Made by a program: the position numbers and the translations under genes. 64,000 nucleotides of DNA. Origin: a virus. Below, piece after piece: positions 3,100 to 22,988 of the stretch. Where the stretch lies: the IMG/VR virus record IMGVR_UViG_3300020122_000155, positions 41,066 through 105,065 of that record. One strand, written 5' to 3'. Position 1 is the stretch's first letter. The number at the start of each line of letters is the position of its first letter. The notes beneath the pieces were generated by a model. The model was not told the origin of the DNA and made no database searches. It saw nothing but the letters and a program-made list of their open reading frames with translations.

Positions 3100-3698
3100 C
3101 TCGCCCTCTGCTGGAATCCCAGGACTTCTTCCAGCGGCCATCCGTAAGACAGCCTTGAAAAAATAGTTGCCCTTTTAACGCCCACCTTCCTCGACCATTG
3201 AGAAACTGTAAGCGTAGATCCCTCGAATGTAAGCCATCGATTAGCCCTAGTGTTATTGCTCTGCTCCTGCCGAGTCGCCCAACGAACATTCCCTGGCTGA
3301 TAGCCAAGGTTATTATCAATGCGATCCAGAGTCATTCCAGGGTTCGGCCTAACTCCTACGTCTGCTATGAAATTCTCATATTTCTTCCACCTATCGCATA
3401 CCTTTACGCCCCGCCCTCCATAGTAGGAGTAGCAAATATTTTTCGGGTTGGTGCATCGCTGCCACATCTCCCTCCATATGCCATTCTCCTTGTCCCTGTG
3501 TCCGCCATGCTTTATCCTGGATTCAATCTCCAGACACCCACACGATCTTGTTGACCCAGAACAAAGGTTTGACACCATGACAGAAGTGGTATTTCCGCAA
3601 TCGCACACGCATTCCCATTTGGTGTGCCCCTTTGCCCTACCAGCAAAGCGCACCAATACAAGCCGCCCGAATCTTTGTCCTGACCTATCCTTTATCAT
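3096..3698 (-). CDS. HNH homing endonuclease
   Basis: GQRFGRL, W.C.CDCG, SCGC, YGGRG.KVC.RW, TLDRIDN...Y.PGNVRWAT..EQ.NN. Confidence 0.9.
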   Translation of the reverse strand: MIKDRSGQRFGRLVLVRFAGRAKGHTKWECVCDCGNTTSVMVSNLCSGSTRSCGCLEIESRIKHGGHRDKENGIWREMWQRCTNPKNICYSYYGGRGVKVCDRWKKYENFIADVGVRPNPGMTLDRIDNNLGYQPGNVRWATRQEQSNNTRANRWLTFEGSTLTVSQWSRKVGVKRATIFSRLSYGWPLEEVLGFQQRAR

Positions 3699-5882: not shown

Positions 5883-6205
5883 GCGCCCTCCACTAGTTCG
5901 TGAAACTTGCGATCACCTTCGTCGGCTTCGCTGTACGCCTGCGGCTCCGGCATCAGGCCGAGCGTCATCAAAAGCTCGCACAACTCGTCGCGCGTTTCGC
6001 CTTTGCCCATCTCGACAAGGAACTCATAATCACATTCCCGCGTGCAGATCCACTTGCCCTTACTGAAAAAGACGGCGTAATAACCATCGGGCGTAAGGAA
6101 CACTTGATTGTCGTGCTCCTGCCACTTGAGAGAGAGCAGCGTTGAGCGAATGTTACCGTAGGATGCAGACGGCCAACCTTCGGGACAAATGGCAAGTGGG
6201 CTCAT
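5879..6205 (-). CDS. hypothetical protein
   Basis: ATGA overlap; GGAAGG RBS. Confidence 0.6.
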   Translation of the reverse strand: MSPLAICPEGWPSASYGNIRSTLLSLKWQEHDNQVFLTPDGYYAVFFSKGKWICTRECDYEFLVEMGKGETRDELCELLMTLGLMPEPQAYSEADEGDRKFHELVEGA

Positions 6206-6390
6206 GACACCTTCCTAACTGCGTCTATAATCTTGCGCCGCCTAGAAACATATCCCCGAAGGAATTTTTCAAGCGCATCAGAAATGGACATACCGTCAAT
6301 CGCAGCGATGCGCTTGGCGTCTAGCCATAATTGCTTGTCACGCAGGATAAACGTTCGATTGCCAAGCTGTTCCGCTGTTTTTCTCTTCAC
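6202..6390 (-). CDS. ribbon-helix-helix transcriptional regulator
   Basis: RTFILRDKQLWLDAKRIAAIDGMSISDALEKFLRGYV fits RHH; GTG lies 8 nt after the TACATT -10 box. Confidence 0.6.
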   Translation of the reverse strand: MKRKTAEQLGNRTFILRDKQLWLDAKRIAAIDGMSISDALEKFLRGYVSRRRKIIDAVRKVS

Positions 6391-8531: not shown

Positions 8532-8764
8532 AACGCGGCGAGAGAATCTGGACCTGCGAGGTTTGCGGCAAAGAGGCTCCGTGGGGTGATGGATGGCAGT
8601 CCTATGGGTCAATTCGCAATGACGAGGGCGGCTTGCCTCCAATTGTGGTTTGCTCGCTGGCTTGCCGCGACGATCAGAAAACCAAGCAGTTGATCGAGGA
8701 GTACTGCGTTGTCGAAGCCGCGATGAAGAAGGAAGGCTATTTCCGTCGAGGACCGTGCCGATGA
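8528..8764 (+). CDS. small Cys-rich (zinc-binding) protein
   Basis: CEVCG...CSLAC. Confidence 0.6.
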   Translation: MKRGERIWTCEVCGKEAPWGDGWQSYGSIRNDEGGLPPIVVCSLACRDDQKTKQLIEEYCVVEAAMKKEGYFRRGPCR

Positions 8765-8773
8765 ACTTTTCTC

Positions 8774-8802
8774 TTGCAAAGCTCAAGGAAGAGGGTTAGA
8801 CT
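8774..8802 (+). promoter_or_regulatory. sigma70-like promoter, predicted leaderless start near 8810
   Basis: TTGCAA (8774-8779), 17 nt, TAGACT (8797-8802); ATG follows after 7 nt. Confidence 0.7.
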
Positions 8803-8809
8803 TTGAGGT

Positions 8810-9235
8810 ATGACGTAGGTGCAAGGTTCGCCAAACGAGCAGTACGTTTACATTTTTGTCCGCCAGGACATTTCCCTTCCTCAGCAGATCGTCCAATCCA
8901 ACCACGCAACGCTTTCCTTTTCTTCCCATCATGGCGTGGAGGGAATCCCAAACATTGTTCTTATCGGAGTCCCCAACGTTGCCGCACTGAAAGAGGCGTG
9001 CGCGTTGCTGTCGGCCAACCAGATTCCGCACTGGAGTTGGACTGAGCCGGATTTCAACCTGGGATTCACAGCCATTTGCACAGCCGCGATTAGCGGATCG
9101 GAGCGCCTATGTCTGGCGCACTACCGCACGTGGAAACCAGTTTTTCCCTCGTCAGCTAACTGCAAGCTGGCAGTCTCTAACACTGCTCATGCTGGGGCGG
9201 GTCCAGCCGAGGGAACCAATGCCGCTGTAGCTTAA
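8810..9235 (+). CDS. Pth2-fold (peptidyl-tRNA hydrolase II / PTRHD1-like) protein; in-frame TAG at codon 3 if started at ATG 8810, otherwise GTG 8819
   Basis: YIFVRQDI....QIVQS.HA, NIVLIGV, W.EPD....TAIC match the phage Pth2-like pattern; the last ~30 codons overlap the tRNA-like genes. Confidence 0.8.
9145..9218 (+). tRNA. non-canonical amber-suppressor-type tRNA (anticodon CUA)
   Basis: Acceptor TCCCTCG/CGAGGGA + A + CCA; D stem AGCT/AGCT; anticodon stem GCAGT/ACTGC with loop CT-CTA-AC; T stem GCTGG/CCAGC. Confidence 0.8.
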
Positions 9236-9290
9236 AGCAGAGCGCTCGCGCAAGCGATAGATGGAGGGTCGCGTCCTTCCAGCGGCACCA
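9221..9290 (+). ncRNA. tRNA-like RNA with a GCAA tetraloop in place of the anticodon loop
   Basis: Acceptor GCCGCTG/CAGCGGC + ACCA; D stem GCTT/GAGC; TCGC-GCAA-GCGA; T stem GGAGG/CCTTC. Confidence 0.75.
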
Positions 9291-9294
9291 GAAT

Positions 9295-9378
9295 GCTTCG
9301 GTAGCTTAAATGCTAGAGCGACCGGCGATCCTCACGGGTTGTCGGTAGATGGTGGTGAAAGGCCATCCCGGAGCACCA
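9295..9378 (+). ncRNA. tRNA-like RNA with an 11-bp anticodon-position arm and 4-nt loop
   Basis: Acceptor GCTTCGG/CCGGAGC + ACCA; D stem GCTT/GAGC; ACCGGCGATCC-TCAC-GGGTTGTCGGT; T stem GGTGG/CCATC; T-run follows. Confidence 0.75.
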
Positions 9379-9389
9379 TCATTTTTTTC

Positions 9390-9417
9390 TTGCAAATATT
9401 CTGGATCTGGTTATACT
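9390..9417 (+). promoter_or_regulatory. sigma70-like promoter of the Hfq-like/replication operon
   Basis: TTGCAA-16-TATACT. Confidence 0.6.
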
Positions 9418-9444
9418 TTTTACTATCCCGCAAGGATAATTTTA

Positions 9445-9498
9445 GCGATAGCCGCCAGCCTTGATCTGGCGGCATATCGCCAGCCTATCAAGGAGGCT
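9445..9498 (+). promoter_or_regulatory. 5' leader: two hairpins with complementary loops covering the RBS
   Basis: 14-bp stem with loop CCTTGAT; 5-bp stem with loop ATCAAGG; SD AAGGAGG lies inside hairpin 2. Confidence 0.6.
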
Positions 9499-9500
9499 TT

Positions 9501-11798: not shown

Positions 11799-12772
11799 AC
11801 GAAGAACAAGAACTAGCCGGACTACTTGAGCAGCACAATAATCAGCCGCCGCGACCGAGCAACGTCGAGCTAGCGTCATCGCCGCCGATGCGAACCGGAA
11901 CCGATGTCGATTTCGCCCAGTGGCAGATTCTTTCGAACGGGAAGTATCGGCCAGGAGCAAAGACGCGAGAGAAGCTGCCTGCCGCCGTCTACCGCGCCGG
12001 TCAGGACGATTTCGGCCCGTTCCTGGAGCTAATCAGCCTTGTCTCTGACGACTTCGTAGAGCTTCCAGAACCGGCGCATATTCGCGTACTCGACGGCATT
12101 CGAAAGTTCTGGCGGTCGCGTGAGCGTTACGAAAAACATGGCCTGTTGTATAAGCGCGGCGTGCTTTTGTGGGGACCTCCAGGAGCCGGGAAAACGGTGT
12201 GCATTCACCTGCTGATGGCGGAGATCGTCAACAAGCATGACGGCATTGTTCTGCTGGCTGACAATCCCGATTTGACGGTGGCCGTCCTGCGATTCTTCCG
12301 CCGCATCGAGCCGACGCGCCCGTTGATTGTTGTGTTCGAGGACGTGGACGAAACCGTGAACCGATTCGGCGAACACTCCCTGCTTGCGGTACTCGATGGA
12401 GAACACCAAACGTCGAACATCGTCTATCTGGCGTCAACCAATTACCCGGAGCGCCTTGGTGCGCGGATCGTCAACCGTCCTTCGCGCTTCGATGAACGAA
12501 TCAAGATCGGTATGCCGTCGAGCGCAGCGCGGATGGGGTATCTCAAAAAAGCGATAGGGACCGGCGATGTGAATGTCGAAAAATGGTGCTTAGAGACGGA
12601 CGGAATGAGTATCGCGCATCTTCGCGAGCTTGTGGTTGCGGTGCTCTGCTTGGAGCAGGATTATGAGACTGTTCTTGCTCGGCTGAAGGCGATGGAAATC
12701 ATGCCAAAACCGGAGGATGGATTCAAACACGCGAAGTTTGGACTCGAAAACGCAATGCGTGGTTTACGATGA
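11795..12772 (+). CDS. AAA+ ATPase
   Basis: YKRGVLLWGPPGAGKT (Walker A), VVFEDVD (Walker B), STNYPE, RPSRFD; GTG start. Confidence 0.9.
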   Translation: MNEEQELAGLLEQHNNQPPRPSNVELASSPPMRTGTDVDFAQWQILSNGKYRPGAKTREKLPAAVYRAGQDDFGPFLELISLVSDDFVELPEPAHIRVLDGIRKFWRSRERYEKHGLLYKRGVLLWGPPGAGKTVCIHLLMAEIVNKHDGIVLLADNPDLTVAVLRFFRRIEPTRPLIVVFEDVDETVNRFGEHSLLAVLDGEHQTSNIVYLASTNYPERLGARIVNRPSRFDERIKIGMPSSAARMGYLKKAIGTGDVNVEKWCLETDGMSIAHLRELVVAVLCLEQDYETVLARLKAMEIMPKPEDGFKHAKFGLENAMRGLR

Positions 12773-13935
12773 ACGAAGCCGACTTGAAGATAATCGCCGA
12801 GCGCGAGGAGCGCGAAAAGACGCCGTGGATGTGGTGGCACTGGCAGAACCTCAACGACAAAAAGGGCGGCGGTCAAGGCTCTGGTTTGCGCCACGGTCGA
12901 TGCTGGTGGCACTTCCGCACGAAGAGTCGCAGGCCAGGGCCAACAATCCAGTTCTCTTGGAATCTGTGGTCGCATTTTTGCGGCATCGGAGTTGACTGGG
13001 ACGACGAGGATTTGACGTTCAGCGCCGCGTTCCCGCCGTTCGCGTTCTGGCTGTCGCTAAGCACAAATTTCGCGTGGATAGACAAGATCCTGCCGCACAA
13101 GGTTCTGTCGCCAAACTACCCGGACACCATCGTTGTCGATAAGCGCGAGATCGCGATAAAGATCCACAACGGCTGCGTCTGGATTCATCCATATTCGAAG
13201 TCGATGGAGTGGGTGAAGGCCGATCCGTGGTGGGTGCGTGGGGTCAGCTTCAGCATCAATCCGTTCGAAGCAAAACATCAGCGCCATGAAGTCCGGCGCG
13301 CCGATGGTTCTTGGGTGCCTTACGTCGGATCGTGGGAAGTTGGGCCGAGTCGCGGAGAGGGAATCGGCGGGCAGTTAGGTGGGAAGGAACCGGACGGACG
13401 CGAAGAGTTCAAGTATCCGTACACCTACGTTCGCAAAAACGGGGAGGTTCAGCAGCGAACGGCTACGGTGTTTGTTGACCGGCGTGCATGGCGTCCACGG
13501 TGCCTTCAGTGGACTTCGCTATTCGAGGATCAGCGCCAGTGCATCGACGTTTCCTTTGACGACGAAGTGGGCGAGCGCAGCGGATCGTGGAAGGGTGGCG
13601 CGGTCGGGTGCGGCTACGAGATGCTTCGCGGCGAGACGGCGGAAGAGTGCTTACGGCGCATGGAGCGCGAGAGGAAATTCTTGATGCGGTACATCGTAAT
13701 CTTTCAGCAGGTAGTCGGGAATTGGGAAATCTGCTACTCGTGGGACGGCGAGAAGTTCACGAACTACATCGATGCGAGGAGCCACGGATTTGAAACGCGC
13801 GGTTCGGATGATTTCAATATCGGAGTTTTGAAAAACGGACGCCTGATTTCATTTCGGTGGATGGATGAGGTTCTCGACTTTCCACTTTGCGAGATCGCGT
13901 TGCACATCGGACTGAAAGCGAACAAGGCAGCGTGA
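12769..13935 (+). CDS. Trp-rich phage hypothetical protein (possibly two fused genes)
   Basis: F..EVGERSGSWKGG motif; internal RBS and ATG at 13684. Confidence 0.7.
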   Translation: MNEADLKIIAEREEREKTPWMWWHWQNLNDKKGGGQGSGLRHGRCWWHFRTKSRRPGPTIQFSWNLWSHFCGIGVDWDDEDLTFSAAFPPFAFWLSLSTNFAWIDKILPHKVLSPNYPDTIVVDKREIAIKIHNGCVWIHPYSKSMEWVKADPWWVRGVSFSINPFEAKHQRHEVRRADGSWVPYVGSWEVGPSRGEGIGGQLGGKEPDGREEFKYPYTYVRKNGEVQQRTATVFVDRRAWRPRCLQWTSLFEDQRQCIDVSFDDEVGERSGSWKGGAVGCGYEMLRGETAEECLRRMERERKFLMRYIVIFQQVVGNWEICYSWDGEKFTNYIDARSHGFETRGSDDFNIGVLKNGRLISFRWMDEVLDFPLCEIALHIGLKANKAA

Positions 13936-22580: not shown

Positions 22581-22988
22581 ATGCGAGAACTTACAGACCA
22601 TATCGTGAGCGGCGATCAAGCTGTGCAGTTGAAGATCGAAGTTACTGACGAGCCGGGGGCTGGGGGCGCAAACCATCGATACGAAATAACGGGCTTCGAC
22701 ACCAAGCCTAATCCCTCCGCGAAGGATCGCGCTGGCTATATGTCCAGCTATTCGCGGGAGTTGGTGCTGTTTCAGAATGGCCCAATCAAAGAGGCTGGCG
22801 TAAACGGCATAACGCAAGAAGCGCTACTGGCTATTGTGATTGACCGCCTGCGGAGTTTCCAGGCTGGCCCGTTCGCTTGCCGCGAGAATGCAATCTCGTT
22901 GACCCATTGCGAGGAAGCGCTGATGTGGCTCCAGCGACGCACGGTCGCACGCATCAAGCGCGGCGTCGAAGGAACGAACGTAAAGTAG
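22581..22988 (+). CDS. tad1: Tad1-family immune-signal sponge (Thoeris anti-defence 1)
   Basis: G.GGA.H.Y, FQ.G, LL.IV.DRL.SFQAGPF..RENA..LTH.EEALMW..RR...R..R.V.GT closely matches Tad1. Confidence 0.85.
   Translation: MRELTDHIVSGDQAVQLKIEVTDEPGAGGANHRYEITGFDTKPNPSAKDRAGYMSSYSRELVLFQNGPIKEAGVNGITQEALLAIVIDRLRSFQAGPFACRENAISLTHCEEALMWLQRRTVARIKRGVEGTNVK

Follow-up and report, generated by a model that had tools for sequence, protein, structure and literature searches.

We analyzed a 64,000-nt stretch of virus DNA (the window), which corresponds to bases 41066–105065 of the complete 105,065-bp IMG/VR record IMGVR_UViG_3300020122_000155, a genome with direct terminal repeats and a GC content of ca. 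55%. At positions 9145–9218, the plus strand of the window encodes a tRNA with the amber anticodon CUA and a non-canonical elbow. Directly upstream, and in part overlapping it, lies a protein-coding gene, P0001 (8819–9235, plus strand), whose product resembles peptidyl-tRNA hydrolases of the PTH2 family. The frame of this gene opens with ATG ACG TAG (8810–8818, plus strand), which places an in-frame UAG, referred to below as the amber gate, at codon 3. A PTH2-like gene opening with ATG-NNN-TAG together with a tRNA(CUA) forms a module in large phages that use the standard genetic code; in the soil clade represented by the window, the two parts are physically fused.

The amber-anticodon tRNA and its PTH2-like neighbor

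The 74-nt tRNA folds into a cloverleaf with perfect stems of 7, 4, 5, and 5 bp, in which all 21 pairs are Watson–Crick. The acceptor stem (TCCCTCG/CGAGGGA, seven pairs including U1-A72) is followed by discriminator base A73 and an encoded CCA (9216–9218). A two-base linker (TC) leads to the D stem (AGCT/AGCT), which closes a 7-nt loop, AACTGCA, devoid of GG. The anticodon (C9177 T9178 A9179; 9177–9179) lies in a 7-nt loop, CTCTAAC, that contains U33 and A37 and is closed by the stem GCAGT/ACTGC, while the T stem (GCTGG/CCAGC) carries the loop GGCGGGT, which lacks TTC. The sequence is exactly as described in the original prediction, which had been made from the letters alone and had pointed to the unusual D and T loops, U1-A72, and A73. 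ARAGORN also finds a tRNA here, the sole one that it calls in the whole 105-kb genome, and labels it tRNA-Pyl(CUA), as it does for any CUA anticodon.

The minimum-free-energy fold of the segment is the cloverleaf itself (−30.7 kcal/mol, z = −2.14), and 7 of 200 shuffled sequences fold equally well; fold energy alone is weak support for a tRNA. It is through its relatives that the segment is distinguished from chance. A covariance model (R2) built from the CUA tRNAs of 29 relatives, with the window excluded, matched it at 49.8 bits (E = 1.7e-11 over 108 kb). In the alignment of these 29 sequences, 98% of pair cells were standard pairs and compensatory changes were seen in 19 of the 21 pairs, a result reached by none of 500 shuffles. 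The anticodon, on whose conservation the original prediction had been staked, recurs in 30 unique CUA tRNAs of related loci, with C34, U35, and A36 invariant and A37 nearly so. Judged from these sequence comparisons, 9145–9218 is a real phage tRNA-type gene with an amber anticodon. A close DNA relative of the window tRNA could not be aligned, since an exact-pattern scan of IMG/VR for its type of D arm returned no matches; its close relatives are known only as the tails of proteins (P0002, P0003, P0009, and P0010). DNA searches with positions 8700–9500 found nothing in GenBank phages (in distant mode) or in E. coli genomes, and a search of phages with the tRNA alone gave chance matches only.

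The tRNA is also conserved on a short time scale. In soil-metagenome contigs 95–99% identical to the window (parts of 8800–9450 were uncovered in single runs), there were 14 substitutions in the PTH2-like gene (8893–9107) and one at 9220, while none fell within the 74 nt of the tRNA. This pattern indicates that purifying selection acts on the tRNA in this lineage.

The P0001 frame continues with GTG 8819, immediately after the TAG, and its conserved core, which in 52 homologues ends at a YRLWK motif, stops near 9133–9142. In an AlphaFold model of the core (pLDDT 76.6), the top Foldseek matches were PTH2 structures 1rlk, 1q7s, 2zv3, and 3erj (probability 0.93–0.98, TM 0.56–0.60, E of ca. 0.04–0.08). 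A profile search of the Protein Data Bank gave E = 0.057 to a peptidyl-tRNA hydrolase and nothing better. Pfam gave no match to the window protein itself; 14 of 33 family members matched PF01981 at E ≤ 0.1, and homologues in cultured phages pass the Pfam cut-off. We call the gene PTH2-like, after the predicted peptidyl-tRNA hydrolase fold, and its product a putative hydrolase. In four jumbo phages (XacN1, L051; Xoo-sp13, L083; CM1, L082; Hallingskeid, L079; L numbers denote loci throughout), the PTH2-like domain forms the C-terminal part of a protein of ~240–280 amino acids. The N-terminal domain of these fused proteins has no Pfam match at E ≤ 0.01, and a guess that in XacN1 and Xoo-sp13 it is an HD phosphohydrolase was dropped for lack of Pfam support at this threshold.

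The P0001 frame has no stop codon of its own: it runs through the whole tRNA and ends at a TAA (9233–9235) inside the next element. Such an arrangement is common in the family. The hydrolase frame enters a tRNA-like element before any stop in 29 of the 33 loci that have an element within 400 nt (25 of 29 when redundancy is removed), and the gap between the core and the first base of the tRNA is −1 to 12 nt in 17 of the 29; in the soil clade of the window, the tRNA starts no more than 12 nt past the core. Many homologues accordingly end in translated tRNA, read in differing frames. A cut by RNase P at 9144/9145 would leave the upstream mRNA without a stop codon, with consequences that we infer below. 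Completion of a stop by polyadenylation after excision of the tRNA, as in the mitochondrial punctuation model, was considered and rejected, because, in the window as in L004 and L011, the bases left ahead of the tRNA could not be completed to UAA.

The amber gate in related loci and cultured phages

TAG serves as an ordinary stop codon in this genome. Among 132 greedily called open reading frames (ORFs) of the whole genome, 21 end with TAG, 43 with TAA, and 68 with TGA; the four TAG codons that the original prediction had listed as ends of ordinary genes (924, 22578, 35095, and 61228) are all among the 21. When TAG is counted as a stop, coding density is 0.907; it becomes 0.916 when TAG is read through, and 0.922 when TGA is removed. 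The median read-through extension is 15 codons for TAG, 22 for TAA, and 19.5 for TGA, and TAG extensions look coding only where the following gene is in the same frame. Recoding of TAG (code 15) is thus ruled out by the paucity of in-frame TAG codons and by a gain in density no larger than that for other stops. The code is not globally reassigned, as the original prediction had held, and genome-wide recoding is not the purpose of the tRNA. An amber tRNA in a phage that still terminates genes with TAG fits the regulatory, rather than code-changing, role that had been suggested for it.

A candidate for what the tRNA might regulate is found at the start of the adjoining gene. ATG-NNN-stop followed by at least 80 open codons occurs genome-wide three times with TAG, twice with TAA, and three times with TGA, and the hydrolase gene has the only convincing ATG-NNN-TAG gate. 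Scans of IMG/VR, metagenomes of the Joint Genome Institute, and GTDB contigs yielded 44 loci with related genes. After removal of exact or near duplicates (L029, L038, L043, L017, L018, L027, L028, L032, and L036), of truncated L042, and of the weak L045, 34 non-redundant loci remained, the window included. In 33 of the 34, the first stop met upstream in frame is TAG; the exception, L013, has a TAA 38 codons upstream and carries a UCU tRNA at the usual position of the CUA tRNA. The opening is ATG-NNN-TAG in 30 loci, with ACN as the middle codon in 25. In 24 of the 34, none of the start codons ATG, GTG, or TTG follows the TAG before the conserved core is reached, and read-through would be obligatory there; the window, with its GTG, is not one of these. 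Where a clear Shine–Dalgarno sequence is present (L019, L021, L030, L034, and L039), it lies 4–11 nt before the first ATG and not before the codon that follows the TAG. The gate is unchanged in those 95–99% identical soil variants that cover 8800 onwards.

The gate and the tRNA occur together. A CUA tRNA is present in the fetched downstream flank of the gene in 27 of the 34 loci, and the window phage has all three parts: the PTH2-like gene, its in-frame ATG-NNN-TAG opening, and the tRNA(CUA). The same holds for five cultured phages, namely Acinetobacter phage ME3, Salmonella phage Arash, Ralstonia phage RsoM2USA, Yersinia phage fHe-Yen9-03, and Pectobacterium phage CBB, while Klebsiella phage RaK2 has neither the gate nor a CUA tRNA among the six tRNAs seen. 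In RsoM2USA, ATG TTG TAG ATT stands ahead of an unannotated PTH2-like homologue; in Xanthomonas phage XacN1, ATG AAG TAG is found four codons upstream of the annotated ATG of ORF364, a fused ORF. In the GenBank records of RsoM2USA (L047), ME3 (L053), fHe-Yen9-03 (L080), CBB (L081), and Arash (L046), the gated hydrolase gene has no annotation, is split, or is given a start within the core. A tRNA annotated as tRNA-Phe in Arash (L046:2810–2881) is read by ARAGORN as CUA.

Suppressor tRNAs of two of these phages have been reported before. XacN1 was described as having two CUA tRNAs, for which the available text of that paper names no target, an in silico read-through of 18 amber stops having given nothing (PMC5852040); the suppressor tRNA of RsoM2USA is likewise reported in the available text without an identified target (PMC8504454). 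Like the window phage, both have a CUA tRNA, keep TAG as a stop, and carry a PTH2-like homologue; the window phage differs from XacN1 and RsoM2USA in the fusion of its tRNA to the hydrolase gene and in the lack of the canonical elbow. The target that we propose lies upstream of annotated starts, where, as far as the available text of these papers goes, neither study looked (PMC5852040, PMC8504454). Our literature search found no description of the gate or of the gate–tRNA module.

Neighboring elements and genome setting

Two further tRNA-like elements follow the tRNA on the plus strand. The first of these, element 2 (9221–9290), is a cloverleaf ending in ACCA in which a 4-bp stem with a GCAA tetraloop replaces the anticodon loop; it scores 41.8 bits with Rfam model RF00005 over 9221–9287 (gathering threshold 29 bits, permissive filters) and 44.8 bits with R2. 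Element 3 (9295–9378; fold z = −2.66, R2 47.6/47.2 bits) is also a cloverleaf ending in ACCA, carries an 11-bp hairpin capped by a UCAC loop where the anticodon arm would be, and is followed by a run of T. Without an anticodon loop, neither of the two can decode. Among the soil variants, element 2 has five substitutions, three of them in its T loop and two (9240 G>A and 9258 T>G) that strengthen stem pairing; there is one deletion at 9291; and the four substitutions in element 3 (9298, 9307, 9323, and 9340) are all G-U/G-C switches that keep the pair.

Other unusual RNAs accompany the tRNAs of related loci. “Long” CUA tRNAs with an extra hairpin of ~30 nt between the anticodon and T arms are present at L009:1946–2051, L011:1934–2037, L034:2360–2466, L010:2036–2135, and L040:2002–2099. 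Anticodon loops UUUCUAA or UAUCUAA, which ARAGORN assigns to Arg (UCU), occur in the same arrays (L013:1874–1948, L035:1055–1136, L030:1945–2019, and L023:1174–1256). RNAs of ~50 nt that resemble tRNA minihelices were seen, each built of a 7-bp acceptor-like stem and one or two internal hairpins and ending in NCCA; they have short motifs in common and lie at L002:3400–3452 and 3528–3580, and just past the first tRNA in L011, L012, L004, L009, and L010. In the window phage itself but outside the window, the minus strand at L049:17614–17682 (genome 36614–36682) holds a tRNA-like piece whose D and T arms are canonical and which has the loop CUUGAAA. Its acceptor stem has only three possible pairs and ARAGORN does not call it; the piece may be a decayed tRNA.

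The early gene block that ends in the tRNA array is headed by a σ70-like promoter (6204–6231, plus strand; 11 of 12 hexamer matches), and a promoter-like site, TTGCAA-16-TATACT (9390–9417, plus strand; 9 of 12 matches), stands at the start of the next transcription unit; both are consensus matches only. The same plus-strand early block encodes two proteins with anti-defense-type domains, one matching the Pfam family Acb3, an inhibitor of the anti-phage system CBASS (12769–13932, E = 1.1e-36), and one with an Acb2/Tad1 hairpin domain (22581–22985, E = 1.6e-05, under the Pfam cut-off). A Pfam scan of 131 ORFs of the genome revealed a large terminase, ERF- and YqaJ-type recombination genes, and many HNH endonucleases; an IS1595-family transposase (L049:3784–4734) and at least six HNH endonuclease ORFs (L048/L049) lie inside the phage genome according to Pfam. 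No aminoacyl-tRNA synthetase, release factor, or tRNA-processing enzyme was found among these 131 ORFs and P0001 with Pfam, or among 11 ORFs near the tRNA with PHROGs.

A probable suppressor tRNA with a proposed target, and the alternatives

The reading that we favor, with moderate confidence, is that the tRNA is a genuine phage suppressor and acts on a conserved target, the UAG gate of the adjoining PTH2-like gene, the output of hydrolase following the activity of the tRNA. The early operon would be transcribed, and the tRNA cut out of the transcript and charged. The charged tRNA would then compete with release factor 1 at the codon-3 UAG, and the hydrolase would be made in proportion to the suppressor activity of the phage. 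The identity of the inserted amino acid is probably irrelevant, because codon 3 sits in the unconserved N-terminus of the protein. Elsewhere in the genome, the tRNA would give only leaky read-through of the 21 TAG-terminated ORFs. As to why the two should be coupled, the arrangement could serve dosage coupling, feedback on the suppressor, or counter-defense, in view of the Acb3-like and Acb2/Tad1-like neighbors. The original prediction, a low-efficiency, regulatory suppressor, is thus partly supported, and a specific conserved target, the codon-3 UAG of the abutting gene, is added to it here.

Several observations weigh against this reading. The elbow nucleotides of elongator tRNAs (G18 G19 and T54 psi55 C56) are absent from the window tRNA. 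Of the tools whose scores had been called for, ARAGORN calls the tRNA but Rfam model RF00005 (gathering threshold 29 bits) gives no match at 9145–9218 even at E ≤ 10; such a tRNA may perform poorly on the ribosome. The discriminator base varies among the 30 CUA tRNAs (G in 13, U in 11, A in 5, and C in 1), and no single charging enzyme is therefore implied. At the gate, a canonical start stands directly past the TAG in 6 of the 34 loci (GTG in the window; ATG in L002, L005, L030, L034, and L039), and the GAGG of the window is located 10 nt upstream of GTG 8819 and only 1 nt upstream of the ATG. Since it is better spaced for the GTG, the gate may be leaky here and would probably be bypassable, and ordinary initiation at the GTG would require no suppressor. 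The codon after the TAG is nearly always AUN or GUN (ATT in 14 loci, ATC in 9, ATG in 5, GTA in 2, and GTG, GTC, CTG, and AGC in one each), which also fits re-initiation after a two-codon mini-ORF. Finally, the ORF sets are our own greedy calls, made without a trained gene finder, and the variant comparison amounts in effect to one lineage, since runs X2–X4 share changes.

The re-initiation idea leads to an alternative in which the suppressor plays no part at the gate. Ribosomes would stop at ATG-ACN-TAG and re-initiate on the adjacent AUY, AUG, or GUG, so that termination–reinitiation or peptidyl-tRNA drop-off would control the hydrolase, and the CUA tRNA would have another job, such as general low-level read-through or counter-defense. 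Nearly all loci have a start or near-start codon right after the TAG, and the window GTG could initiate alone. The product, too, would make sense: peptidyl-tRNA hydrolases clear minigene products, and the gene encodes a look-alike of this class. The gate recalls the bar minigenes of phage lambda, two-codon ORFs (AUG, a sense codon, and a stop) that act on host Pth, in that a two-codon ORF is functionally tied to a peptidyl-tRNA hydrolase; the bar minigenes, however, have no hydrolase gene joined to them in frame. Moreover, any stop codon would allow re-initiation, yet TAG is used in 33 of the 34 loci, though it is the rarest stop of the genome (21 of 132). The gate also travels with the CUA tRNA, both in the 27 loci and in the five cultured phages, and the A that most post-TAG codons place after the UAG is the context that favors amber suppression. 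We therefore regard control by re-initiation as unlikely.

A second alternative takes the window copy for the decaying remnant of a once larger tRNA array, retained as a structured RNA only (a processing signal, a 3′ stabilizer, or part of a terminator) and without a decoding function. The loss of the elbow nucleotides and the lack of an Rfam tRNA match would be expected of such a relic, and the window phage has no other ARAGORN tRNA, vs. 19 in relative L002. The two elements that follow lack anticodon loops, the piece at L049:17614–17682 has a broken acceptor stem, and the GTG past the TAG could make the tRNA dispensable. Yet all 21 stem pairs have remained Watson–Crick, the loop CUCUAAC is identical to those of the canonical L002 and L004 copies, and no substitution has entered the tRNA while its flanks diverged. 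Loss of the elbow, too, seems not to be random: among the 30 unique CUA tRNAs, the D-loop GG and the T-loop TTC are both kept in 16, both lost in 11, and mixed in only 3. Coupled loss in two interacting loops is the pattern expected of a working alternative elbow rather than of random decay, and argues that the elbow-less class, the window copy included, represents an alternative working architecture. Elbow-less copies are more often those directly against the gene (7 of 11 vs. 5 of 19), which is only a trend (Fisher p = 0.06, related loci). Decay to a non-decoding RNA thus appears quite unlikely.

A more elaborate possibility, speculative and in our estimate improbable, is that the tRNA and the enzyme together provide self-regulating handling of UAG independent of release factor 1. 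An elbow-less tRNA would take over the nascent chain at UAG and be prone to leave the ribosome; the dedicated hydrolase would free the peptide or deacylate the tRNA, which would thereby be recycled. The codon-3 UAG of the hydrolase gene would provide feedback, holding suppressor activity at a set point, and the gene–tRNA fusion, which may leave the mRNA stopless after excision, would couple tRNA processing and enzyme synthesis a second time. Such feedback would be akin to that of prfB, the gene for release factor 2, whose product autoregulates its own synthesis through an in-frame UGA and a +1 frameshift. In both cases, a gene from the part of translation concerned with termination or peptidyl-tRNA has an early in-frame stop, and its output depends on how the stop is read. 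Unlike in prfB, the stop would here be read by a separate, co-encoded tRNA, and feedback of the hydrolase on that tRNA is conjecture.

It is very improbable that the tRNA is tRNA-Pyl, or another tRNA that is served by a dedicated synthetase and inserts a non-standard residue. tRNA-Pyl has a CUA anticodon, lacks G18G19 and T-psi-C, and has a single base linking the acceptor and D stems, a 5-nt D loop, G73, G1-C72, a 6-bp anticodon stem, and a 3-nt variable loop. The window tRNA shares the anticodon and the absence of GG and TTC, which had led the original prediction to draw the analogy, and it bears the ARAGORN label; a 6-bp anticodon stem and a 3-nt variable loop are possible only if G26-U44 is counted as a sixth pair, as ARAGORN draws it. 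The analogy fails at the two-base linker, the 7-nt D loop, A73, and U1-A72. The PylS C-terminal domain (TIGR02367) was not found in the complete 105-kb genome, in line with the missing pylS of the original prediction; no search was made for pylB, pylC, or pylD, or in the host. The rest of the genome, where a synthetase had been thought worth seeking, yielded none in the Pfam scans of the 131 ORFs. Relatives' tRNAs at the same position look ordinary, and for the canonical L002 copy the nearest match is tRNA-Lys of E. coli (79.7% over 69 nt, E = 2e-7). That the cloverleaf arose by chance within the 3′ end of a protein-coding ORF can practically be dismissed: ORF 8819–9235 does read across the tRNA and the fold z is modest, but the homologue core ends before the tRNA, the tails are tRNAs translated in different frames, and both the R2 match and the covariation are strong.

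A suppressor that acts on the gate of the PTH2-like gene thus remains the reading we prefer, and it differs from the known use of suppressor tRNAs by phages with recoded stops. In the latter (crAss-like and Lak phages among them, with TAG read as Gln under code 15), as far as the available text of the two reports describes them, phage suppressor tRNAs accompany the altered code (PMC7886860, PMC10879173). As in those phages, a phage-encoded tRNA(CUA) would control which phage genes are translated; here, there is one gated gene, with no recoded set of late genes and no genome-wide in-frame TAG codons.

For phages of the standard code whose suppressor tRNAs have, in the available text of the reports, no known target (PMC5852040, PMC8504454), the module offers a concrete and testable one. 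This target, the codon-3 UAG of a small gene for a tRNA-hydrolase-like protein, is conserved in uncultured soil phages and cultured jumbo phages alike, and because it precedes the annotated starts, several GenBank records lack the hydrolase gene or give it in truncated form. The family also indicates that the universal D-loop/T-loop elbow can be lost from a tRNA of the decoding type in a coordinated manner, which bears on the role of the elbow. If our reading is true, these phages would encode a translational switch that consists of a tRNA and a stop codon and acts on an enzyme of tRNA metabolism.

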